Assembly (NCBI GenBank): GCA_963717145.1
Contig: OY970325.1
Span: 3,968,001-4,032,000 of the forward strand
DNA: 64,000 bases
Direction of reading: 5' to 3'
Source of the DNA: an uncultured Armatimonadetes bacterium
GTDB lineage: Bacteria > Armatimonadota > UBA5829 > DTJY01
Shown here: positions 3,106 through 61,304 of the stretch, piece by piece
Numbering within the stretch: position 1 is the stretch's first letter
How the letters are laid out: every line of letters starts with the position of its first letter
Notes under the pieces: generated by a model
The model's input: only the letters and a program-made list of their open reading frames with translations
Database searches by the model: none
What the model was told of the DNA's origin: nothing
Position numbers and translations under genes: made by a program

Positions 3106-5370
3106 GTGAAAGCAGAGATGCGCAGTCAACGTCACAACCTGAGCGACGCCGAGATGGTGCGGCGGACACTGGCGGGCAGCCGGTCGAGCTTCGACGCCTT
3201 GGTCGACCGGTACCGCGACCGGGTCTACCGCCTGGCCTACTTCAAGGTCCGCCGCCCGGACGAGGCCGAAGACCTCGCCCAGGATGCGTTCGTTGCCGCC
3301 TACCAGGCGCTCGGACAGCTCAGGGATCTCGACCGCTTCGCCCCGTGGCTCAGGCGGGTGGCCGAGAACGTCTGCAACATGCGCGTTCGTCGGACGCGCC
3401 CTGAGACCATCCCCATCGAGGATTACCACACGCCAACCGAGGACCACAGCATCGAACGATGGCTCCTCGACACGCGGATCCACGATGCGCTCTCTCAGCT
3501 TTCAGAGACCAACCGCCTGGCCGCGACGCTCTTCTTCGTGGACGGCCTCTCCCAGAAGGAGATCGCCGAGTTCCTCGACGTTCCGGTGACGACCGTCAAG
3601 CGCCGGATCAACCTGTCGCGCGCCCGGCTCAAGAAGGAGTTGATCGATATCATGCACGACACAATCGGCCCGGAGAAGGCGAAACCCGGGTTCGCCGATG
3701 AGGTCTCCGCCAGGATCGACGTGCTGCGCTGGTGCCGGCAGTTCGGCGACTACATCAACGCCGGGGTGACGCTCGTCAGGGCGCTCTCAGACCTGGAGGA
3801 GGGCGACTTTTCCGATCGAATCAAGGCGGAGACGCACGCCGTCCGAGCCGCCATCATGGAGGGGGCTTTCCTCACTGCGGCGATAAGGGAGCACTCACCA
3901 TCGCTCAATCACCCGCTGATCGTCGGGATGCTCCGCGCCGGCGAGATCGGCGGCGTGCTGGATCAGAGCCTGAGCACGATCGTCTCGTGGATGGAACGCG
4001 AGGACATCGGCCTCAAAGTCGATACGGCATATTGGCTCCGAACGCTTGCCATGATGCTTTCCGCGGGTGTGCCGGTCGTGCAGGCGATCGACACGATGCA
4101 GCACGTCCGAGCGGCCGAACCGCTCCCCGACCTGCAGGCCAGGCTGAACGAAGTCATCCGAGAGGGCTGTCGCTTCCCGGTCATATTCGCCGAGTTCCCG
4201 GGACTCTTCAGCCCGGCGGTGATCGCACTCGTCGCCGCCGGTGAGGAGAACGGCATGCTGGACACGGCACTCGTCATTGCCGCCTCGGAGATCCTCCGCG
4301 AGGCCTTCGAGAAGATTCAGTCCGACACGGCGCTCTCGTTCGACGCCCATGCCCGGGAGAAGTTGGCGGAACAGGTCAGAGCGCATCTCGCCGACAAGTC
4401 GCCCGAGTCACGGATCGGCGCGCTCCAGGCGCTCGATCAACTGACGGGTGCTGTTCGGGTTGTCCAGGTCGGCCCGCTGACATCCCGACGCGCTCCAACG
4501 TGGGGAGAGCTGACCGGATCCGAGTCGATGGAATGCTACGTCTCGGCGCTCGACGACCGGTCGGCCGACGTTCGACGCACCGCCGCCGAGATCCTCGGGA
4601 AGCATCCGTCGGCGGAGTCGGTCACCGCGCTCTCCAGGGCGCTGAAGGACAAGTCGCCCGAGGTCAGGCAGGCGGCGCTGGTGTCGCTGTCGAGCATCGA
4701 TCCCCGGGCCGGCTTCGAGCGTGCCAAGTCGATGCTGGGCGACAAGTCGGTCGGTGTACGGCGTGCGGCGATCCGAATCGTCGGGTCGTTAAGCAGCCGG
4801 GATGCAGCCGACCTGCTCGTCCCGCTGCTCGCAGACCCGGACATGCTGGTCGCCAGCGATGCGATGAAGGGGCTGAAACGCATCGGCGCACCGGCGGTCG
4901 AGCCACTCGTCAACGCGATGAGCGCGACGAAGCCGTTGAGCTGCCAGCTCGCGATGGAGGCGCTCAGAGAGATCGATCCCGGCAAAGCGCGGGAGGTCGC
5001 GCTGGATCTTCTGCAAAGGGGAATCACGGACGCCCGATCTGCTGCGATGCGCACCATATCACGGGTCGGTGGGGACGAGGACATCCCCCTGTTGATCGAA
5101 GCGCTGTCGGACAGCGATCCCTACGGGGTGGTGCGCGACGCCGTGGAGGCGCTCGGACGCCTGAAGGCAAAGGATGCCGTGCCCGCGCTGATCATCACGC
5201 TCGATCATCCCGAGGAGTGGATCGCGCTGAGAGCAGCTTATGCGCTGGCGGCAATCGGCGACAAGAGCGCGATCCCGGCGCTCGAGGCTAAGCTCTCCGC
5301 CAACAATCCTCGCCTGGTGATCAATGCCGCCACGGACGCGCTGAAGTGTCTCGGCGCTGAATGCACATAG
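3106..5370 (+). CDS. ECF sigma-70 factor fused to two T2SSF (PilC/GspF-like) domains and HEAT repeats
   Basis: Sigma2 (AEDLAQDAFVAAY...FAPWLRRVAEN) and sigma4 (GLSQKEIAEFLDVPVTTVKRRINLSRARLK). PilC-like WCRQFGDYINAGVTLVRAL...MLRAGEIGGVLD and RTLAMMLSAGVPVVQAI...LVAAGEENGMLD. HEAT units such as LDDRSADVRRTAAEILG and LKDKSPEVRQAALVSL. Confidence 0.85.
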   Translation: MKAEMRSQRHNLSDAEMVRRTLAGSRSSFDALVDRYRDRVYRLAYFKVRRPDEAEDLAQDAFVAAYQALGQLRDLDRFAPWLRRVAENVCNMRVRRTRPETIPIEDYHTPTEDHSIERWLLDTRIHDALSQLSETNRLAATLFFVDGLSQKEIAEFLDVPVTTVKRRINLSRARLKKELIDIMHDTIGPEKAKPGFADEVSARIDVLRWCRQFGDYINAGVTLVRALSDLEEGDFSDRIKAETHAVRAAIMEGAFLTAAIREHSPSLNHPLIVGMLRAGEIGGVLDQSLSTIVSWMEREDIGLKVDTAYWLRTLAMMLSAGVPVVQAIDTMQHVRAAEPLPDLQARLNEVIREGCRFPVIFAEFPGLFSPAVIALVAAGEENGMLDTALVIAASEILREAFEKIQSDTALSFDAHAREKLAEQVRAHLADKSPESRIGALQALDQLTGAVRVVQVGPLTSRRAPTWGELTGSESMECYVSALDDRSADVRRTAAEILGKHPSAESVTALSRALKDKSPEVRQAALVSLSSIDPRAGFERAKSMLGDKSVGVRRAAIRIVGSLSSRDAADLLVPLLADPDMLVASDAMKGLKRIGAPAVEPLVNAMSATKPLSCQLAMEALREIDPGKAREVALDLLQRGITDARSAAMRTISRVGGDEDIPLLIEALSDSDPYGVVRDAVEALGRLKAKDAVPALIITLDHPEEWIALRAAYALAAIGDKSAIPALEAKLSANNPRLVINAATDALKCLGAECT

Positions 5371-8626: not shown

Positions 8627-8669
8627 AAAAACGCAGAAAACCGGCTGCCTCGGCCGGTTCTCTGCGTTT
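8627..8669 (-). terminator. Intrinsic terminator
   Basis: aaacgcagagaaccggccg-agg-cagccggttttctgcgttttt on the minus strand. Confidence 0.6.
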
Positions 8670-8797
8670 ACGCTAGGACTGTATTTAGTTATGCAGCCTC
8701 GAGACGGGATCGATTCCAACCCCCCGTTGGCGCTAGCCATTGAACCAGCTTCCCGTCTCAGGCATCGCAGGCACTGCAAGCAACGCCTGCAATCATC
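8627..8797 (-). ncRNA. Candidate structured RNA 1 (sRNA or attenuating leader)
   Basis: Lies between an ECF-like promoter (8803-8829) and a terminator (8627-8669). Contains a 14-bp hairpin (8764-8793) and a 3-way junction (8701-8759). G-U pairs form only on the minus strand. Confidence 0.5.
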
Positions 8798-8802
8798 TAA
8801 TC

Positions 8803-8829
8803 TGACGCCGGCCGCGCGCGGAAAGTTCC
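8803..8829 (-). promoter_or_regulatory. ECF-type promoter GGAACT-N16-CGTCA
   Basis: Same -35 and spacing as the sites at 9134-9159, 14206-14234 and 59754-59782. Confidence 0.6.
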
Positions 8830-8983
8830 TATGGCCGACGGTTTTTTGTCATACTCAGCGAAATTTTCCCCAACTGCGTGGACGTTTCGCTCATCACCCT
8901 CATATTACCATGTGTGCGATCTGTGTCCAACTGTTAAGAATACCAGGTTTCGGTGGAATCGCATGAGGAATGACGCAGCCACG

Positions 8984-9014
8984 AAAAAAGAGCCTCACCT
9001 TGCGGTGAGGCTCT
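8984..9014 (-). terminator. Intrinsic terminator
   Basis: agagcctcacc-GCAA-ggtgaggctc followed by T6 on the minus strand. Confidence 0.85.
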
Positions 9015-9125
9015 AAGAATGCCGGGTCGTCGGTGCTCGGGACCTTGCAACAACCAACGGCCCGGCTTGGGCAAGGAGGTATTGGAAAGGAGCAATCTGC
9101 ATCACTTGCGTTCTGCAGGTTTCCT
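8984..9125 (-). ncRNA. Candidate sRNA 2 with anti-SD tract
   Basis: ECF-like promoter upstream. Hairpin, then unpaired CUCCUUUCCAAUACCUCCUU, then a gccggg...cccggc hairpin, then a strong terminator. No credible ORF. Confidence 0.55.
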
Positions 9126-9133
9126 ACTTATGA

Positions 9134-9159
9134 TACGACGTGGCCGTGTCCAGAGTTCC
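9134..9159 (-). promoter_or_regulatory. ECF-type promoter GGAACT-N16-CGTA
   Basis: ggaact ctggacacggccacgt cgta on the minus strand. Confidence 0.55.
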
Positions 9160-9221
9160 GTAATTGTCACACCTTTTTCACAGTATTTCAGGAAGGCGTC
9201 GGAGGTCGCAGGATAGTGTCC

Positions 9222-12200
9222 TCAGAGGGGATAGGTGAAGATGTCCGCTGCCGTTCGAGGAAGGACCACGCGCACGAGTCCGCAGTCCCCAGCGGCCATC
9301 GAGAGCACACCCGTCGCAATGGCGTAGTCGCCTTCCGGAGGAAGCGGGCTCAGAACGGACGAATCCACTCGGATGCCCGGCGTGGACGTGCAGTCGCGCA
9401 GCCCCGAACCATCATCCAGGTAGATGAACCCATCGCCAACGGAGCTTATGCGTCCCCAGACCGTCACCAGAAGACCCGGCGGGCAGCTCGATTCGATATC
9501 CCTGCTGAGAATGGTGACCGGACGCACATTGACGGTCTCGCCGGTCTTCCCGATGTGTTCTCCTGCGAGCGCGCGCTCGGAGAGCACCGTCGTCAGCCGA
9601 CCGCCGACCTGAACCACGTCGCCGACCCCGACGCCAAGGCCCTGAACCTTGATCGCGGACGACCGATCGAGCGCCTCGATGTAGAACCACGACCCGAAGA
9701 CTCCCGTGACCGCGCCTGACACGAGTATGCTTTCCCCGTCGCCCAACGTGCGGGCCACACCGATCGATGGAACCGTCACGAATGCCGGCTCGAATCGGAC
9801 CGAGTCGGCGAGGACGACATATCCCGAATCCGCAACATTGGTGAGCCGGACTGTGATGGTTTCACCCGCGGACAGTTCGCTTACGCCAAGCTGGTTCCAT
9901 TGGCCGCCGTCGATCTGCTGGTTGACGGTCGTGTTGTACTCATTCGGGCCGACGATGATGGAGTATCGGGCGGTCGTTGTACGGTTTGCCCCTGCCGACC
10001 ATCGCGCTTGGATCCTGTAGATGCCTGTCTCCGGTGCCTGCCGAGTCCAGTATGCCTTCGACGTTCCACTCGGACTGGCCATCGCATAGCGGTAGTCCGG
10101 GCCGTATGCGCCCGGAGTGACGTTACCGGTGGACCAGCCTCCCTCGACGCTGAACGCGGCATCGAGGTTGTCGACAATCACGGCATCATCGGCCCTGGTG
10201 ACGATGTAGATCGGCTCCGATTCGGCGCGCTGGCCGAACTCGTCTTCCGATGCGACATCGATCCGATAGACCACGCCGGGCGCGAGGCCCTCGAGCCTGA
10301 TGCGGTGCTGGAGAACTTGCTTGGCGTCGAAGTGGCTCTGGAGACCGTCCGGGCCGACCACCGCATACTCGAGCCTGCTGTCGGCCGGAAGGTTAGTCTT
10401 CCACCCGACATCAGCCGTTGTGGTGGTGACATCTGAGACTCCCGGATCGATTAGCCTCAGCGGACTTCGCAGATACTCCACGCACTGGTTGCCGAACCAG
10501 TCGGTCGCTCCGACTGCAATGGTGAGAGTGTCGGCCGGTTCGAACTGGATCTGCCAACGGTTCGGACCTGAGTGCGTGCAGTCCAGGCGCGAATATGAGC
10601 CGTCCGTGCCGAGTCGGGCCACAAACGGCTGAAGCTGGTAGATCTCCTCGTCGTATGAGAGGGTCACCGTGCGAATGCTCGCATCATCCTCGCTCGTGAC
10701 CTGGAGGTTCGGCGGAGTGACATCCGATCCGTCTCGCCATCGGAGCATGCACTCGCGGCCGGTGAGGTATTCGAACTCGACCATCGGGAGGCTGCCGTGC
10801 AGATCGGTCAGTCTGGCGTGAAGGGCATCGACCTGCTCCGGGAAATCGGTTTCCTTGAGGTGCGAGAAGAGCGTCATGAGCTGCGGTTCGCCGTCGAGCG
10901 CCTTGTAGAACGCATCTGTCAGCACGGCCGTCGTTGCGCTGCTGATAGACTCGCTCCTCGAATCCCACCCGCGGAGCGTCCCGGGCGACTGATAGTCGTT
11001 CGGATCGGGATGGTATGGCGTCCAATCCGACGGCGCACGTCGCCAGTCGTAGATGTTGCCGACAGGCTCCTCGGTCGTCGTGCGGTAGGCTGGCCAGTCG
11101 TTCTCGAACCGGTATGGGATCCAATCGTCCAGGTGGCGCTGCCAGAGGTTGTCCATGTAGTGCCAGCCGCTGCGGAACGATGACGGATAGAACCCCCGGT
11201 CGATCAGCATGTGGGCCATGGTGCAGTCGAAGTCCTCCATGCAGTAGCTGAAGTCGGGCGACTGGTTCCAGTGGAAGGCGCCGTCGGCATTCGGATCGTT
11301 CCAGATCCAGGTGTGGTAGTGGTAGGCCATCTCGTCGCCCCAGCGGTCGATCGAGTCGCCGTGATAGTCCTCCATCAGCTCGAACGGGAGGAGCGGCCCG
11401 GAGTCGGTTCCGGCTGCGTAGAGCGAGCCGGTCTGCATGTACCACGTGAACTTGATCGCGTTCCCGAGGCTGTCGCGGTGGGCGTCGCGGTATGACTCCG
11501 CCATGACGCGCGCGGCCTGGCCCTCGGGCGTCGTATAGGTGTTGTCGAGTTCCGGGAAATCGATGTAGCGGCTGGCGATATTGATCCCGCCGGTCGACGT
11601 GTCGGAGCAGACTTGGACGTATACCTTCGCGGGCGTTGCGTCTCCCGGCCTCGTGAAGACCAGGTCGTCCACGAAGAATGTGCTCGTGTGCGGCATGACG
11701 AAGTTGCCGATGCACGCGTATAACGGCGCGCGGAGGTAGGTCTGGGCGATGCTCGCGTCGGGAGCGGCGTGGCCGTCGAGGTACAGGTTCGTCGTGGAGC
11801 CGTCATAGGTGATTCGGAAGGAGTGCCACGCACCGTAGGACATCGGCTGGACGACGTTCGCGTACTTGCCGGAGACTGAATCGGGGACGTACAACTGCAC
11901 CCGTCCGCCGGGGAGGATGAAGATGATCGCCGCGACACCCGTGGACGAGTTCTGGACCGACCACGGGATCGCCTCGTCTCCCATCGACTCGATGAAGAGG
12001 TTGAAGGTACACGTGAATGTCTGATCCACGGTCCGCACGCCTGAACAGGTGTGGACCGCGCCCATCTCGTTGGCCGACGCGACCTTCAGGCTGTATGCGC
12101 CCGATGTCGAGCGCTCGTCGCTGATGCTGACGGACCCGGGCTGGACGTACGTCCACCTCGGGTCGGCAGTAAGATTGCCGTCGTCGAAGTCGTCGCGCTG

Positions 12201-12272
12201 GACGACGCTGTCGGCCCATGCCGACCCGCACAGGAGTATCAGTAGCAGTAGTATGGCGGCCGATGTCTTCAT
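9222..12272 (-). CDS. Large secreted multidomain protein: ConA/LamG-like, putative deacetylase-like core, FN3-like, golvesin/Xly-CBD-like, shared C-terminal domain
   Basis: Signal MKTSAAILLLLILLCGSAWA; WHSFRITYDG...LYLDG; AYHYH and FRSGW; W.TNLPADS.LEY; VIVDNLD...YGPDYRY...NQQIDGGQWNQLG...VLADSVRF. Confidence 0.8.
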   Translation of the reverse strand: MKTSAAILLLLILLCGSAWADSVVQRDDFDDGNLTADPRWTYVQPGSVSISDERSTSGAYSLKVASANEMGAVHTCSGVRTVDQTFTCTFNLFIESMGDEAIPWSVQNSSTGVAAIIFILPGGRVQLYVPDSVSGKYANVVQPMSYGAWHSFRITYDGSTTNLYLDGHAAPDASIAQTYLRAPLYACIGNFVMPHTSTFFVDDLVFTRPGDATPAKVYVQVCSDTSTGGINIASRYIDFPELDNTYTTPEGQAARVMAESYRDAHRDSLGNAIKFTWYMQTGSLYAAGTDSGPLLPFELMEDYHGDSIDRWGDEMAYHYHTWIWNDPNADGAFHWNQSPDFSYCMEDFDCTMAHMLIDRGFYPSSFRSGWHYMDNLWQRHLDDWIPYRFENDWPAYRTTTEEPVGNIYDWRRAPSDWTPYHPDPNDYQSPGTLRGWDSRSESISSATTAVLTDAFYKALDGEPQLMTLFSHLKETDFPEQVDALHARLTDLHGSLPMVEFEYLTGRECMLRWRDGSDVTPPNLQVTSEDDASIRTVTLSYDEEIYQLQPFVARLGTDGSYSRLDCTHSGPNRWQIQFEPADTLTIAVGATDWFGNQCVEYLRSPLRLIDPGVSDVTTTTADVGWKTNLPADSRLEYAVVGPDGLQSHFDAKQVLQHRIRLEGLAPGVVYRIDVASEDEFGQRAESEPIYIVTRADDAVIVDNLDAAFSVEGGWSTGNVTPGAYGPDYRYAMASPSGTSKAYWTRQAPETGIYRIQARWSAGANRTTTARYSIIVGPNEYNTTVNQQIDGGQWNQLGVSELSAGETITVRLTNVADSGYVVLADSVRFEPAFVTVPSIGVARTLGDGESILVSGAVTGVFGSWFYIEALDRSSAIKVQGLGVGVGDVVQVGGRLTTVLSERALAGEHIGKTGETVNVRPVTILSRDIESSCPPGLLVTVWGRISSVGDGFIYLDDGSGLRDCTSTPGIRVDSSVLSPLPPEGDYAIATGVLSMAAGDCGLVRVVLPRTAADIFTYPL

Positions 12273-12450
12273 GGCCGAATTCGCCTTTCGATCAACTTGG
12301 CTGCCGCGCGATACCATTATACCACATGATCACTTCAGATCGACGTGGCCGATCGAATGAGGCTCGAGACGGAGAGTCTGCTTCCAGGAAGAGGGGACAC
12401 CAGTGCGGCCGCCTTTCGGGAAGTCCGAGGGGTGGAGGTCGATCTTGAGA

Positions 12451-14121
12451 TCAACCGGCTCGGTCGCAGGAGTTCAGGTAGAGAATCCGGTCGGCGAAGA
12501 GAGTTGCGGTCACATTGGGCGTTGGCGTGTCGATGATGTGAGGCATGTCCAGCGTGAGGAGAGCGTCCTGAAGTCCCTTCCGGTCGACCTCGATCACTCG
12601 ATCCTTGAACCGTGCGACGATGCGGTCCCATGCCGAACGGTCACCTTCAACCGTCTCGATGGTGCTCATTCCCTGGTGGAAGAGGACACCTCCGCCCTTG
12701 ATCCACTTCTCCAGTGCCTCCAGAGTCGAGTTCTCCATGATCCGCCCATCACAGATCACGAGGGCCTTATATCGGCTCAGTGCGCCGTCACGGATCATGC
12801 GCTCATCAATGAGATTGTAGTCGAATGATGAGCGGCATGACTCGGCCAAATGATACGTCTTCTGCGGCCAGTCCTCGTTTCGGAGGCGGTGCTCGGTCGT
12901 CGGGAAGAAGAACGCGACATCGACGATCGCCTGATTGCCGTCGAGGTACTTCCCGTACTGGGCGAAGAGGTCCTTCGCGCCGAGGAGATTCTGCGGGTAG
13001 TCGAAGTACGTCTGAGTGCCGCATGAGGCGTCCGACCAGATGCGGTTCACCTCCGCATTGCGGTCCATTCCGCCGGGCGGCTCCGTGAAGTACGGCACGC
13101 TGTAGAAGTGGCATGGACTGGAGAGGCTTTTCATCGCGAAATAGGGGATGTTGCCGGGCGTCTGGCAGGCGACCTTCAGCTCTTTGCAGAGCTTCGCAAT
13201 CCCGACGTCGTCGTTCCCGTAGACGGGGTTCTGCGAGCCGTAACCCATGCTGACGATGATCTCCTTGCCGGGGAAGTACTTGCGCACGATGCCGACCGCC
13301 TTCCGCACGAACTCGGCTTGGCTGTCGTAGTACCAGCCGACGAAATCGAGGATCCATCTGCGCTCGCCCGGCGTCATCTCCGTCGGATCCTTGAGGTTTT
13401 CGCGGGCCTTCGCCATATCCGGAAACTGGATGATCTCGAAGTACGCGAAACTCGTGCCCCATGCCTTATTGAGCGCCTTTATGTCCCCATAGCGCTTTGC
13501 CATCCGAGCCCTGAAGTCTTCCCGTGCATAGTAATCGTTGCACCAGTAGCCGGGGTGGACGTGCTCCTGCTTGACGAGCCAGTTCGTCATGCCGTTCGGG
13601 TAGCCGATCTCGCCGTATTCCGAGGGAGTGGCGAGCCGGATGAAGTCGATCTTATCGCCGAAATGGGCCGCGAGTTCCCGGTAGAAGCGATCGTAGGCAT
13701 TGAGGGTCTGCGGCGCCCAGAGCGACATCTGCTTGACCGGCTGGTTATGCTCGACGCACTTGTAAGGCGTGTATGGAAGCCATTTCGGCGGGAAGTGAAG
13801 CCAGCAGAAGACGTTATACCTGAGGCCGTTCTCGTGCAGGACCCTCTCGTTCTTGTCATAGATGCTCCAGTCCCACTCGTTGCAGTCCTTCTCGACCAGA
13901 CACAAGCCGATGTAGTCGCACACGGCGCTGACTCCGACCCCCTTCATCTGGTCGCAGAACTCAGGCGTGGCGAAGTCGCCGGCGGAGGGTTTGCCGGTCC
14001 CCCAGTACTCCTGGAACTGGCCGACACTGAGGTTGCCGGTATAGAAGCGGATTCCTGCATCGGCGGCAGAGAGCGACGTGAGCAGCATCAGCGGGACCAG
14101 AATCAATGCGGCATGTGACAT
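12451..14121 (-). CDS. Secreted GH42/GH14-like glycoside hydrolase
   Basis: Signal peptide; WDWSIYD, HFPPKW, SLWAP, SEYGEIGYP, YGDIKALNKAWGT; trimerisation-like LSRYKALVI...WIKGGGVL. Confidence 0.75.
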   Translation of the reverse strand: MSHAALILVPLMLLTSLSAADAGIRFYTGNLSVGQFQEYWGTGKPSAGDFATPEFCDQMKGVGVSAVCDYIGLCLVEKDCNEWDWSIYDKNERVLHENGLRYNVFCWLHFPPKWLPYTPYKCVEHNQPVKQMSLWAPQTLNAYDRFYRELAAHFGDKIDFIRLATPSEYGEIGYPNGMTNWLVKQEHVHPGYWCNDYYAREDFRARMAKRYGDIKALNKAWGTSFAYFEIIQFPDMAKARENLKDPTEMTPGERRWILDFVGWYYDSQAEFVRKAVGIVRKYFPGKEIIVSMGYGSQNPVYGNDDVGIAKLCKELKVACQTPGNIPYFAMKSLSSPCHFYSVPYFTEPPGGMDRNAEVNRIWSDASCGTQTYFDYPQNLLGAKDLFAQYGKYLDGNQAIVDVAFFFPTTEHRLRNEDWPQKTYHLAESCRSSFDYNLIDERMIRDGALSRYKALVICDGRIMENSTLEALEKWIKGGGVLFHQGMSTIETVEGDRSAWDRIVARFKDRVIEVDRKGLQDALLTLDMPHIIDTPTPNVTATLFADRILYLNSCDRAG

Positions 14122-14205
14122 GGAGTGCCTCCATCGAGTCAGTCATCAGTATATCAGTTGGCCGGCGGGTTCGAGGTTTCATCCCTGAAATCCGAAAAAA
14201 CCTCT

Positions 14206-14234
14206 GGAACCATCGCCGCGTTCCCGTCGTCAAA
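14206..14234 (+). promoter_or_regulatory. ECF-type promoter GGAACC-N16-CGTCAAA
   Basis: ggaacc atcgccgcgttcccgt cgtcaaa, with no plus-strand gene downstream. Confidence 0.6.
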
Positions 14235-14239
14235 TACGT

Positions 14240-14380
14240 GGGAAAACCGAATAGCGCATGCGTCGGATTACCATACTTGCAGCGGACAATCCATACCAGC
14301 AATCATCTTGTCCCAGCAATCCGACCTCCTTCCGTCTATGCCCCAGTCGCCTCCTCCTTTGCCGGCTGGGGCATTCTTTT
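14240..14380 (+). ncRNA. Candidate sRNA 3 with anti-SD motifs
   Basis: Stem gtcggatt/aatccgac, then CCUCCUUCC, then terminator atgccccagtcg-CCTCCTCCTTTGC-cggctggggcat-tctttt. Confidence 0.55.
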
Positions 14381-14399
14381 GCCTCCTCCCACTGCCCAG

Positions 14400-14520
14400 T
14401 AAGAGTTCACGATTGTTGATAATGCAGCCTGGCGGATGTCATTCTGAACGCAGTGAAGAATCTGGCTTGCGCAGGGGCCAGATTCTTCACTGCGTTCAGA
14501 ATGACATCCGCTATCCAGGA
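14400..14520. repeat. Palindromic repeat family A (tgtcattctga...tcagaatgaca), copy 1
   Basis: gcggatgtcattctgaacgcagtgaagaatc...gattcttcactgcgttcagaatgacatccgc. Flanks are also shared with 24240-24360. Confidence 0.9.
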
Positions 14521-24239: not shown

Positions 24240-24360
24240 TAAGAGTTCACGATCGTTGATAGTTGCTTCGCGCGGATGTCATTCTGAACGCAGTGAAGAA
24301 TCCGTTTGCGCACGGCCAGATTCTTCACTGCGTTCAGAATGACATCCGCTATCCTTGATC
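24240..24360. repeat. Palindromic repeat family A, copy 2
   Basis: Near-identical to 14400-14520. Confidence 0.9.
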
Positions 24361-56677: not shown

Positions 56678-58273
56678 TTATCGCGCCAGTTGCCAGATGA
56701 TGTCTTCGGCGTTGCGGCCGTCATACGTTGAGTAGCGCATGTCCTCCGTCGAGAACGGCGGTTTTGGTGGACGCAAGTGCGGCGGTGGCATGGGCGGCGA
56801 GATCACCTCATCCGTTGGCGTTCCAGGCGGGGGTGTCTCCAACGGAATACCATGTTGAGGTTCACCTGAGGCCTGGGGAGCGCCCGCGGTCGCCGGGGTA
56901 TAGCCCGGCGGAGGTGTCTCGATCGGAGCCTCCACCGGCAACTTTTCCGGCGGATGGTCGTACGAGATCCCGCCGTCGTCCTTCAGGTTCTCCCCGATGC
57001 TGTAGAAGATGCAGCCCTTGCCCTGTCGCCTGTAGACGAAGTCCTTCCCGCTGTACGGGTCCTGAGGAAGCTTCCATCCAAGTCTCGATCTCAACTCGCC
57101 GAGAGATCGTGGGTAGCCGCCGAACCGGTCCCTGTACGCTAGAAGGGCGCAGAGCACCTGCCCGCCGCTCACCTCGGCGATTGCATCATCGCGATCATCG
57201 ATGATGCTGCTGAAGACGGACAGCAGCGTTTCCGAGCCGAGCGCGTAAGCAGGGAGTTTCTCCTTCTCGAGGAGAGCCGACCGCTTGGTCTTCAGCATCC
57301 TGTAGGGCAGAACGGTATTCCGCATCCTATCCTCCATGCCTTTGAGGTAGACCAACTCGTCCGCGTATACTATCGGCGTGCGCGAATGGAGTGGAGCGAT
57401 CACCGGGTACCAGGCCTCAGGGTCCGGGCCTGTCAGATTGCTGCAAAGGCACCCGAAGGTCATGTACTCGTTGATCATTTCCGGGTTCTTGCGGAACTCG
57501 TCGAACGACCACAGGCCGAATACCGTCTCCATTCGCATGGCCCGAGCATATCCTGGATTCAGGTCGATGGATGCCAGCGCGTAATACAGCCTCTTCGCCT
57601 GATCGGAATCTATCTGCGTTTCCTGGGCGACAAGCTCTAAGCTGCGAGCGTGAATCCGCAGTGCGGCATATCTGACGAGCTGCGATATGATCGACGGCTC
57701 TTCTGCGAGCGATTCGGACAACTTGGGCCCAAGCGCCAGTGATCGAACGGCCTCGTCGGGTCGGTTGTCCACGGCGCTCACGATCGCATCTGCCGCCAGG
57801 AGACGCGCCAGTGACCGCAGTTTCGGCAGGTGCGGGGATAGTGCTGCAGCGCCCTTCTCCCACTCGACGGGGAACACGCATTTCGGGCGAGAGGTCGCCT
57901 GCTCTATCAGGTCGATCACGTGCCTGTTGCGCTCCAAGACCTTCATCCCCCTGGCCCACGAAGCCGGATCATCGAGGCGCTTCTCAGGCGACAAGAGGCT
58001 TGAGAAGGCCTCACTGTCTTCATCCGTAAGCGGCTCTTCCATCTCCGCGAAGACCCTCGCATAGATGACGGCGGCGTTCTCGGAGTTCCGGACCTTCTTC
58101 GGGGCGATGTCGGCGAGGGTTGTCGGCTCGCCGCTTGCCTTCAGTTTGGCGATCTCCGACGCGACCTTCCGACTTAGGACCAGCGTGAGCACGAGGTCCG
58201 TGACGATCACGACCAGCGCGATGACGATCACGATCTTCCCCAGGAGCTTGAGCCCTCTCTTGACCTTGTTCAT
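56678..58273 (-). CDS. Membrane-anchored helical protein with GspG-like C-terminal motif and Pro-rich tail
   Basis: N-terminal TM segment; Y....GGYP.SL.EL...DPYSGKDFVY......FYSIG.N.KDDGG. Confidence 0.7.
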   Translation of the reverse strand: MNKVKRGLKLLGKIVIVIALVVIVTDLVLTLVLSRKVASEIAKLKASGEPTTLADIAPKKVRNSENAAVIYARVFAEMEEPLTDEDSEAFSSLLSPEKRLDDPASWARGMKVLERNRHVIDLIEQATSRPKCVFPVEWEKGAAALSPHLPKLRSLARLLAADAIVSAVDNRPDEAVRSLALGPKLSESLAEEPSIISQLVRYAALRIHARSLELVAQETQIDSDQAKRLYYALASIDLNPGYARAMRMETVFGLWSFDEFRKNPEMINEYMTFGCLCSNLTGPDPEAWYPVIAPLHSRTPIVYADELVYLKGMEDRMRNTVLPYRMLKTKRSALLEKEKLPAYALGSETLLSVFSSIIDDRDDAIAEVSGGQVLCALLAYRDRFGGYPRSLGELRSRLGWKLPQDPYSGKDFVYRRQGKGCIFYSIGENLKDDGGISYDHPPEKLPVEAPIETPPPGYTPATAGAPQASGEPQHGIPLETPPPGTPTDEVISPPMPPPHLRPPKPPFSTEDMRYSTYDGRNAEDIIWQLAR

Positions 58274-59700
58274 GGCCGAGGACTCCCTCCCCACCACACG
58301 ATATCCCCGAGGTCCGAGTCGCTGTTGATCGGCGGCTCACGGCCACCGTCGTTCTTCATGTTCTTGCCGATGCTGTAGAGCAGGAATCCCTTGCCCTCAC
58401 GGCGGTAGATGAAATCCTTGCCGCTGAATGGGTCCTTGAGCAATTCGGTGTCCGAGGGGCGGAGTCGGGCCAGGCTGTCGGGGTACTCCCCGTGCTGACG
58501 CTCATACGAACTGAGCGCCAGGGCAATCCGGGCGATGCGTGTCTCGGCCAGGGACTCGTGCACGGCCATCTTGGCCCTGCTGAACACCGGCATGATGAGG
58601 CTGGACACGGGCACGGAGAGCTGATGTACTTCTTCCAGATCCTCCTCATTACCACGGGAAGCAGTGATCGGCACGTCGGCATCGGCGATGATCTTGCCCA
58701 TGTGGTGGAGATAAAACCGCTCGTCCGAGTAGAGCAGAGGCCTGAGAACAACTGCCAACAGCCTGGGGGAAGTCGGGCGGTTCACGTGCACTGCACTCAG
58801 GTCCATCACTTCAAATACCAACCGGGGGTCTCTCCTGATCTGCTCGAACGTTATCAGGCCCGTCGCGCGCTCGCCCTGCAGGGCCTTCCGGTAGTCCGGC
58901 CGCAGATCGGCGTCCGCGAGCAGGCTCGACAGGCGGGAGGTCTGTTCGTCGTCCAGGCTGCCATATTGCAGAGCCTCCTGGAGGTTGCGGCAGGTGATGC
59001 TGATGATCGCTCTTCGCACCAGCACTCCTATCAGAATCGGCTCGTTCGTGATTGAGTGGGCCATGCGCAAGCTCAACGAGATCGACTGCTCGGCATCAGC
59101 CATCCTCCCATCTTTCGCTGCAACGATGGCGTTGGCGTTGGCAAGCAAGGCCAGTGCCCTGAACTGAGAGTAATGCGGATATGTTGCTGTGAATCCGTCC
59201 TCCCAGCTCACCGGGAAGCGGCATTTCTCCATGGAGGCGGCGCGCTCGGCGATCTCCAGCGCCTTCTCGTACTTGCGGACGATCACGCGGGCTCTGTCCC
59301 AGCTCTCGGGGTCGGCCTTGCGCTTCTCAGCATCGGTGAATAGCCACAACTGCTCATTATCCGTGCGGTCAGCTTTGAAATCTGGCAGGAGTTGGAAGGC
59401 TTTCGCATATACAAGCGCCGCGTTCTCGGCGTCCGGGACTTTCGGTCCAACCAGCTCGGTGATGGAAGGCAGTTCGCCTCTCGCTCGGAGGGCCACCTTG
59501 TCGGCTGCGAGCATCCGACCGGTGATGAATGTGGCGATCCCATCGACAACCGCGACTACGACCAGGAACACGAGCAGAATCTTCGCCGTCCGTATCGCTA
59601 TCGGCTTAGCTCTTCGGCGCAGTCGACTGCCCAGCCGAAGAAGTCCCATGCCCATCGGCCGAAGCGTCGGGAAGTAGTCGCCGTCTACTGATCGTTTCAT
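58270..59700 (-). CDS. Paralogue of 56678-58273
   Basis: ENAALVY.KAF; YPDSL..L...DPFSGKDFIYRREGKGFLLYSIG.N.KNDGG. Confidence 0.7.
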   Translation of the reverse strand: MKRSVDGDYFPTLRPMGMGLLRLGSRLRRRAKPIAIRTAKILLVFLVVVAVVDGIATFITGRMLAADKVALRARGELPSITELVGPKVPDAENAALVYAKAFQLLPDFKADRTDNEQLWLFTDAEKRKADPESWDRARVIVRKYEKALEIAERAASMEKCRFPVSWEDGFTATYPHYSQFRALALLANANAIVAAKDGRMADAEQSISLSLRMAHSITNEPILIGVLVRRAIISITCRNLQEALQYGSLDDEQTSRLSSLLADADLRPDYRKALQGERATGLITFEQIRRDPRLVFEVMDLSAVHVNRPTSPRLLAVVLRPLLYSDERFYLHHMGKIIADADVPITASRGNEEDLEEVHQLSVPVSSLIMPVFSRAKMAVHESLAETRIARIALALSSYERQHGEYPDSLARLRPSDTELLKDPFSGKDFIYRREGKGFLLYSIGKNMKNDGGREPPINSDSDLGDIVWWGGSPRP

Positions 59701-59753
59701 GATCGCCTGCCTCCTTCGGTGTTCCTCAGGTGCATCTGACACGTGTCAGTAGA

Positions 59754-59782
59754 TTAGACAACCGAGGGAGGTCGGAAGTTCC
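59754..59782 (-). promoter_or_regulatory. ECF (RpoE-like) promoter GGAACTT-N16-GTCTAA
   Basis: Close to the RpoE/AlgU consensus; ~50 nt upstream of the ATG at 59700. Confidence 0.65.
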
Positions 59783-59862
59783 GGGGATGGATCCTGCAGA
59801 CTCTGCCATTGACCGGAGGACGCGAAACGCTCTACAATGCCCTGGGAAAGGCGGTGGACGGA

Positions 59863-61304
59863 ATGGAGCGTCGCGAGTTCTTGAAAGCAGTCGGTGGCGG
59901 CTTGTGCGTGGCAGCCGTGGGAGCAACCTCGGAGGCCGTGGCGGAGAGCCCCCGGAAGCCGAACATCATCCTCTGTATGGCCGATGACCAGGGCTGGGGC
60001 GACATGGCCTACAATGGCCACCCCGTCCTCAAGACCCCGAACTTCGACAAGATGGCCGCTGAGGCCTTACGGTTCGACCGATTCTATGCCGCCGCGCCGG
60101 TCTGCTCGCCGACGCGTGGGAGTTGCATGACCGGCCGGACCCCAACCGCTTCGGCTGCTTCAGTTGGGGCTATCCGATCCGCCCGCAGGAGGTCACCGTC
60201 GCCGAGGCGCTCAAGCAAGCCGGGTACGTCACGGGCCACTTCGGCAAGTGGCACCTCGGTCCGTCCTGAAGGGCAGTCCGGTCAATCCCGGCGCGTGCGG
60301 CTTCGATGAATGGTTCTCCGCGCCGAACTTCTTCGACAACGACCCGATCCTCAGCCGCGAGGGCGTCGCCGTTCAGACCAGGGGCGAAAGCTCGATGGTG
60401 ACGGTCGACGCCGCGCTGGAGTTCATCCGCAAGCATTCCAAGAGCGACAAGCCTTTCCTCGCGGTGGTGTGGTTCGGCTCGCCGCACCTTCCGCACAAGG
60501 CGGCCAAGGAGGATCGAGCGCTCTACGCCAACCAGAAGGACGATCTTGCGAACTATTACGGCGAGATCACCGGCATGGATCGGGCGCTGGGGAAGCTTCG
60601 CGGCGAACTGAAGACGCTGGGCATACAAGATGACACGATCCTCTGGTACTGCAGCGACAACGGCGGCATCGACACGTACAGCGTCACCGGAGGACGCGGG
60701 AGGAAGAGCCAGGTCTACGAAGGCGGCCTCCGCGTGCCGGCGATCCTCGAGTGGCCCGCACGGATCCCCAGGCCGCGCGTGACGAACGTTCCCTGCGTCA
60801 CCTCCGACTTCTTCCCTACCCTGCTCGAAGTCGCCGGCGTGACCCCGAAGAGCGGTCGGCCGTTGGACGGGATCAGCCTCATGCCGCTGATCGAGGAGAA
60901 GTCTGCGGCGAGATCGAAGCCGATCGGGTTCTGGGACATCAAGGCGGCTCGGCATCAGGACACCGACCGACGAGTGGATGACCGAACTCCTTGCGATGCA
61001 GAAGGAAGGCAAGGAGGATACCGATCCGGCCCGATTGTGTCCGGATGCGGGCAAGATCGAGAAGCAGTACGCGGAGGACGCGTTCCCCGGGCACTCGGCA
61101 TGGCTCGACTGGCCGTGGAAGCTCCACCGGATCGAAGACAAGGATTCGCAGGTCAAGCTGGAATTGTACAACCTGGCGGAGGATCCACTTGAGAAGACGG
61201 ACCTGTCCGCTCGGGAGACCGATCGGGTGAGCGCGATGAGACCGAAGCTGGAGACATGGCTGGCATCAGTCGTTCGGAGCCTCAACGGGAAGGATTACGG
61301 CTGA
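59863..61304 (+). CDS. Tat-exported sulfatase with about three frameshifts
   Basis: RREFLK signal; [17 protein letters not shown] motif; [28 protein letters not shown]. Confidence 0.88.

Follow-up and report, generated by a model that had tools for sequence, protein, structure and literature searches.

MicA, RybB and MicL are sigma-E-dependent small RNAs (sRNAs) of enterobacteria. In Fusobacterium nucleatum, FoxI and FoxJ depend on sigma-E as well and, in the part of the report available to us, are described as stand-alone RNAs with C-rich seeds, FoxJ measuring ~156 nt (PMC11005410). RosA of Bacillus subtilis, again as described in an excerpt, is a stand-alone RNA whose G-rich regions pair with the C-rich seeds of the sRNAs RoxS and FsrA (PMC8216469). 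Here we analysed a 64,000-nt stretch of DNA from an uncultured Armatimonadetes bacterium (contig OY970325.1, positions 3,968,001 to 4,032,000), called the window throughout; its genome is referred to as G000 and its contig as C1, and other G numbers are compared genomes. Between positions 8,627 and 14,380 the window holds three RNA genes, labelled A, B and C, which the comparison with relatives indicates are almost certainly real and conserved. Like FoxI and FoxJ, B and C are stand-alone RNAs of similar size with C-rich seeds; A, like RosA, is a stand-alone G-rich RNA and a candidate sponge for the other two.

The initial annotation of this DNA had started from four GGAAC(T/C)-N16 sites, and all four lie where it placed them: GGAACT-N16-CGTC from 8829 (-), GGAACT-N16-CGTA from 9159 (-), GGAACC-N16-CGTC from 14206 (+) and GGAACT-N16-TGTC at 59756..59782 (-). 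The first three are each followed, as it had proposed, by ~143–171 nt without a conserved open reading frame (ORF) and by a hairpin with a U-run. The motif in the form GGAAC(T/C)-N16-CGT is, taken alone, no more frequent than chance: the window contains three matches where 1.0 would be expected (8/100 shuffles reach three), and the genome 132, compared with 62–166 at nine other spacings. Because both frequencies are within chance, the bare motif was dropped as evidence, and the case for real genes is built on conservation in relatives instead. Folding z-scores were -7.6 for A, -5.1 for B and only -1.9 for C. A strict terminator scan listed B's terminator alone among the three; those of A and C are imperfect in this genome, and their hairpin and U-run are kept in relatives. 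A search of Rfam, which had been recommended earlier, matched no known family in the window at the gathering threshold and gave only sub-threshold matches to hairpins or terminators, with E values up to 10. No tRNA, transfer-messenger RNA (ARAGORN), riboswitch or microRNA-like element reached threshold at this locus; the transfer-messenger RNA of G000 lies elsewhere.

Covariance models of A, B and C were built without their promoters and used to search 11 genomes of one Armatimonadota family and 42 other genomes of the class. B was found in 9/11 family genomes. A was present in six of the 11, five times at full length and once cut by a contig end, with one further degenerate copy in G009, and C was recovered genome-wide in eight, with two more weak or cut copies adjoining B. 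Among the 42 other class genomes the models of A and B had no match and that of C had one; a pattern search for A-like RNAs in the same 42 was likewise empty, and a looser A-like pattern gave background counts in five family genomes. Metagenome contigs added four distinct copies of A and two of B. For A these came from matches to a 17-mer, 38/44 of which were not full-length A and were dropped; two of the six kept duplicated known copies. Two of the seven genome matches to B's pattern came from other phyla, did not fit the B model and were rejected.

The order of the genes is kept as well: C and B are divergent and A follows B, while the neighbouring genes change. By eye, from translations, the cassette typically lies between cysE, itself after iscU/nifU-like genes, and a convergent gene for a membrane protein, which points to an ancestral order C <- -> B -> A in that position. 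Base pairs changed on both sides number 14/37 in A and 12/25 in B, with a covariation score that 0/500 shuffles reached and that slid controls fell far below; in C, 3/14 pairs covary. A caveat weighs against these counts: the structures scored were derived from the same alignments and the aligned rows are kin, which makes the covariation supportive and not a formal test. No conserved ORF was found in the copies of A, B or C, and small peptides as their products were rejected, the frames changing or vanishing between copies. The proposal of conserved stand-alone non-coding RNA genes behind promoters of the extracytoplasmic function (ECF) type is thus borne out by the sequences of relatives, in which homologues of all three and covariation in A and B were recovered.

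GGAAC-N17-xGT precedes all 23 of the relatives' RNA copies tabulated, with a free spacer sequence, and this conservation weighs the more because the RNA models contained no promoter. The promoter of A (8803..8829, (-); -35 GGAACT at 8829-8824, -10 CGTC at 8807-8804) is of a GTC class and recurs with the same motif and spacing in 7/7 relatives' copies. That of B (9133..9159, (-)) belongs to a CGTA class and reads CGTA in 9/9 copies; that of C (14206..14232, (+)) is again of the GTC class and reads CGTC in six of seven copies and CGTT in one. In a genome scan with a weight matrix trained on the 23 relatives' promoters, which favours the three window sites by construction, B ranked first, A second and C tenth. 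The matrix found 40 genome sites of at least 14 bits, compared with 2–11 for six shifted spacers, and 33/40 were intergenic by rough gene calls (~15% of the genome is non-coding). These sites point to a regulon larger than the three RNAs: among 16 genes scanned behind them were three ECF/zf-HC2 operons, clpB and genes for an M48 protease, an STN-domain protein and a polysaccharide export protein. The site at 59756..59782, of the GTC class and scoring below 14 bits, precedes the ORF at 58270-59742, which is possibly a protein-coding member of the regulon. A, B and C are thus very likely transcribed from ECF-type promoters, and we expect with the same assurance that ECF sigma factors would drive them under stress.

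RNA B (8983..9127, (-), ~145 nt; all 5′ ends are placed by promoter position) consists of a short 5′ hairpin, an open double anti-Shine-Dalgarno (anti-SD) block, a central hairpin in which 7/12 pairs show two-sided changes, and a terminator (8983-9014). Its seed block (9072..9093, (-)) comprises GCUCCUUUCC and AUACCUCCUUG, both pyrimidine blocks being invariant in 11/11 copies; ACCUCCUU in the second is identical to the 16S rRNA 3′ tail in this genome and is predicted to open at a cost of no more than 0.7 kcal/mol in 11/11 copies. RNA C (14238..14380, (+), ~143 nt) has a variable 5′ part, followed by a conserved anti-SD block, GCAAUCCGACCUCCUU (14315..14333, (+)), directly ahead of the terminator (14340-14380). 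Opening the C seed is predicted to cost 0.4–5.8 kcal/mol in eight copies. A palindromic repeat resembling repetitive extragenic palindromes stands directly after C (about 14395-14510) and again at about 24240-24290, with 53 further matches in the genome.

B and C each have their own terminator, lack a conserved ORF and are independent of their neighbours. Their exposed CCUCCUU blocks would pair with ribosome-binding sites and block translation, probably with the help of Hfq, which is encoded in this genome; we consider it likely that both are anti-SD translational repressors. Median pairing energies at translation starts were -13.3 kcal/mol for the B seed and -12.2 kcal/mol for the C seed, compared with -10.8 and -11.2 kcal/mol in gene interiors, a preference that any anti-SD sequence would show. 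Exact matches to the B seed precede signal-peptide-like starts in G000 (both matches, by eye) and mostly not in G005 and G010. It speaks against the proposed function that no orthologous target common across genera emerged for either seed.

A related RNA occurs across the class: driven by a CGTA promoter, it carries CUCCUUUC-ACCUCCUU and a terminator. The pattern of promoter plus anti-SD block was found in 21/53 class genomes and in none for a reversed control; outside the class it stayed at background (13/348 genomes vs 11 for the reversed control). Tandem pairs of this RNA occur in G041 (L234), G047 (L278) and G038 (L277); in G041 and G047 a separate CGTA promoter precedes each member. At G000:C1:4560594 (-) (L122), a candidate sRNA that combines a CGTA promoter with a CUUCUCCUUUU block and its terminator lies divergent from tRNA-Val; it is conserved in G001 (L140), and its 5′ part resembles the class-wide RNA. 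A family of another class (f20) holds an analogue of the anti-SD RNA with a GTC promoter.

RNA A (8627..8797, (-), ~171 nt) is built differently and has no anti-SD block. A 5′ hairpin is followed by a long stem, P1 (8759-8751 with 8709-8701, (-)), which is paired in all cells of the comparison and shows two-sided changes at 3/10 pairs. P1 encloses a G-rich core and is followed by an A-rich linker and a terminator (8627..8666, (-)), which was missed by the strict scan and has two-sided changes at 7/12 pairs. The core (8714..8729, (-)), CAAC-GGGGGG-UUGGAA, tops a covarying stem and is complementary to conserved blocks in both other RNAs, giving, in this genome, 11 pairs with C and as many as 15 with B. 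All five copies of A recovered without the motif as query have an unchanged CAAC-GGGGGG-UUGG; in copies recovered through the 17-mer its invariance is by construction. The view that all three RNAs form a repressive arm thus fits B and C, with their anti-SD blocks, and not A, which is complementary to the seeds of both.

An A-rich ACAACUGAAUA-type motif is common to A's 3′ linker (about 8685-8697) and the 5′ end of C in relatives, and is possibly a site for a protein such as Hfq. A sigma-70-like promoter lies between B and A (8902-8929, (-)), preceded at about 8935-8950 by a short GGTATT..CAG motif that also occurs in relatives; this may be an additional promoter of A, of the housekeeping type. 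In the same interval, L092, L063, L038 (G007), L042 (G009) and partly L035 (G004) hold a fourth conserved structured element with two hairpins, in which a purine-rich GGAAAGGAAG loop might base-pair with the first block of B. One exact pattern did not find this element in G000, and it has no Rfam match.

We propose, tentatively and at a little below even confidence, that A acts as a sponge mimicking the Shine-Dalgarno sequence. Its G6 loop would nucleate on CCUCCU and UUGGA would then zip onto UUCCA(A) in B or UCCGA in C, since both U's of UUGGA can accept A as well as G in the partner. In all 15 same-genome A-B and A-C pairs, the best accessibility-aware site over the whole lengths (energies from our own implementation) joined the A core to the anti-SD block. 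The compared genomes were also examined for matching changes in the partners. GCAAUCCGACCUCCUU is unchanged in the seven genomes in which A or its remnant is present, and in G003 and G008, both without A, the bases of B and C that would pair with A, the C seed included, have drifted while the anti-SD sequence is kept. In G009, which lacks B, the remnant at A's place has the core GGGGGGUCGG, which replaces a G-U pair with C by G-C and no longer has the B-specific CAA. The tally is one consistent change (G009), drift in two of three genomes without A, and one counter-example, G007, which has no A at the locus and yet keeps both pairing segments.

A number of further results weigh against the sponge. 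Net pairing energies of A reach only -5.1 to -10.0 kcal/mol, with eight long duplexes and 7/15 optima of just 7–8 bp, and B-with-C controls reach -6.6 kcal/mol, at scattered sites. The pairing energy of A is ordinary for an anti-SD seed: of 4324 translation-start windows, 72 do better than A for B's 3′ block, 497 for the whole B block and 162 for C. Opening the 10-nt core costs 5.2–9.9 kcal/mol, the core being partly paired and G6 mostly open, and whole-molecule co-folding drew the core duplex in only 2/15 pairs (our reading; the method cannot draw loop pairings). The G009 remnant is a single event with a weak score (E 5e-4 in 83 kb), was missed genome-wide and has no clear ECF promoter, and G003 and G008 are among the more distant genomes.

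The strongest competitor, possible but less probable than the sponge, is that A is an independent regulator whose G-rich core pairs with C/U-rich mRNA stretches or binds a protein, its complementarity to B and C being incidental and these two still acting as anti-SD repressors. Any G-run pairs with an anti-SD sequence, 23/4324 start windows match or beat A for both seeds at once, and the pairing segments retained in G007 fit this account; so does the ability of the invariant CCAAC/GUUGG to form a hairpin of its own. That hairpin, however, never varies and therefore has no covariation support, and the G009 remnant, with its improved pairing to C, can no longer form it. B and C between them account for both invariant flanks, CAA and UUGG. 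A protein of the CsrA type, encoded here, would find only one or two GGA in A, and CsrB-type RNAs are unlike A in their GGA count.

The base at the -10 element separates the three promoters. Counting this genome, B has CGTA in 10/10 copies and A and C together have GTC in 15/16, so that the single promoter signature described at the outset splits into two classes, each matching a different conserved ECF operon. In a survey of 50 ECF genes from 10 genomes, sigma-1 (G000:C1:2027056-2027625, loop YNRSMPF) has a CGTA promoter of its own, and the motif 50–61 nt before it matches in 9/10 orthologues. Sigma-2 (G000:C1:2544949-2545593, loop FRGDANF) has a GTC promoter at its 3′ end, ahead of its anti-sigma gene, in 10/10 orthologues. 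Only one of 30 other ECF genes had a site upstream, of 13 bits, and none had one at the 3′ end. Both sigma genes are followed by zf-HC2 anti-sigma genes. Sigma-1 has a mycobacterial-type SigE as its best PDB match and a loop that differs from that of SigW; the sigma-2 loop is invariant in 5/5 aligned sequences and aligns with FRGDSAF of PDB 2map, which we take to be region 2 of E. coli RpoE. ECF sigma factors typically regulate their own genes, according to the section of PMC12019637 at hand. One point against the assignment is that the -35 element of sigma-2 lies inside its own coding sequence, where part of the conservation may be protein constraint.

B and C therefore share their promoter classes with conserved ECF operons. 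Because each class matches a different sigma/anti-sigma operon, two sigma factors are likelier than one, and there is a fairly good case that the paralogues divide the RNAs, sigma-1 transcribing B and sigma-2 transcribing A and C. The model of the initial annotation, in which the three RNAs are a joint repressive arm under a single ECF sigma factor that is relaxed at the -10 position, would fit the identical -35 elements and spacing, the clustering of the genes and the fact that one matrix scores both classes. We regard it as improbable: each gene keeps its -10 base from genus to genus, in parallel with two sigma operons whose L3 loops differ, and A lacks an anti-SD block. In the portion of PMC8103513 consulted, the base at this position is set by loop L3, RpoE requires C there, and ECF sigma factors are stringent at it.

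With the RNAs divided between sigma-1 and sigma-2 in this way, A would impose a threshold on C and dampen B, which serves as the RNA arm for sigma-1. The whole chain, from ECF transcription through the division of labour and translational repression to the sponge, is our best explanation, held as tentatively as the sponge itself. A stricter version, an RNA-only switch in which sigma-2 makes the repressor C together with the sponge A, so that A's single wobble-tolerant core thresholds C and silences sigma-1's repressive B, is doubtful on present comparisons; if true, one stress response would cancel the post-transcriptional arm of the other.

Two further accounts have very little probability. 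A could be a Shine-Dalgarno decoy that binds the 16S tail and parks 30S subunits in stress, and GGGGGGU does pair with ACCUCCU, also present in this genome's 16S tail; but the invariant UUGG(A) extends the pairing to B and C and not to 16S, where GGAUC precedes the tail, and no conserved start codon follows the core. Equally remote is the idea that the elements are untranscribed, or are cis-acting leaders, attenuators or mini-genes of their neighbours: A's terminator does stand upstream of the same sugar-hydrolase-like gene in G000, G006 and L091 and an ORF of 9–12 codons opens at A's 5′ end in four copies, but these ORFs shift frame or disappear between copies, promoter, core and terminator are conserved where spacers are not, and in G004, G009, G010, L063 and L092 A is followed by a convergent gene, which argues that A is no leader.

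In the window, two inserted protein genes (9222..14121, (-)) split the divergent B and C and lie outside the conserved cassette. The first (9222-12272, (-)) encodes fn3, Golvesin-C and laminin-G domains and the second (12451-14121, (-)) a glycoside hydrolase 42/14-like protein. The resulting ~5 kb gap is a variable insertion: B and C are at most ~500 bp apart in G003, G004, G007 and G008, and G010 has one 1040-aa gene in the interval. The large secreted-protein genes, among which the RNAs had been described as sitting, are thus incidental, since they vary or are absent in relatives.

Other loci carry related promoters or ECF genes. Units of promoter, short ORF-free stretch and hairpin, some with ACCUCC, were seen at G000:C1:2152212 (-), G000:C1:3412789 (+), G003:C263:7865 and G010:C14:38519, and may be further candidate sRNAs of the two regulons. 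At G000:C1:1883670 (+) (L121) a conserved CGTA promoter is followed by a hairpin with a GAAC-N4-GTTC palindrome, presumably LexA-box-like, and by a small gene, an arrangement kept in G001 and G006. This locus had been considered as a second sponge, candidate 'H', and was rejected: its exact 11-nt complement of C's block is absent in the copies of G001 and G006, where conservation is confined to the palindrome and a downstream promoter. At G000:C1:4198480-4200426 (L131, L138), behind a weak motif site, an ECF gene precedes one in which a zf-HC2 domain is joined to a T2SSE ATPase, and the window itself encodes an ECF domain fused to T2SSF and HEAT domains (3106-5370). Elsewhere in the window an ACR_tran gene (254-2809) and a sulfatase gene (59809-61192) each appear split over several frames, by frameshifts or assembly errors.

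These RNAs would add a further phylum to those whose ECF stress responses have a small-RNA arm. They represent three families absent from Rfam, alongside the related CGTA-driven anti-SD RNA across the class, and the two ECF sigma factors of this group gain predicted promoters and regulons. Should A prove to be a sponge, it would be a compact natural case of one encoded beside both partners and linking two ECF regulons. Literature listings and the starts of abstracts gave no description of RNAs like A, B or C in Armatimonadota, although supplementary motif lists might hold them, and no homology to FoxI, FoxJ or RosA was shown, nor any Rfam match.

The promoters share the two-box layout of those of E. 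coli RpoE and B. subtilis SigW, for which the excerpt of PMC8103513 likewise has loop L3 setting the -10 base. The loop of sigma-2 is RpoE-like and goes with GTC. As in the FoxI/FoxJ regulon, to the extent covered by the part of PMC11005410 used here, the ECF gene carries its own promoter motif and clpB is included. Compared with FoxI/FoxJ and with MicA, RybB and MicL, the RNAs described here are clustered, seem to be shared out among two ECF paralogues, and include a G-rich member with complementarity to the other two. A has the conserved G-rich region complementary to partner seeds that characterises a RosA-type sponge. For RosA, the sections of PMC8216469 consulted report proven pairing and G-rich regions found single-stranded by probing, whereas the pairing of A is predicted and its core is partly paired in the prediction. 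According to the same sections, RosA is under sigma-A/CcpA control and has separate G-rich regions for each partner; A, in contrast, has an ECF promoter whose class it shares with one of its partners, adjoins both, and carries a single core that fits the two of them.

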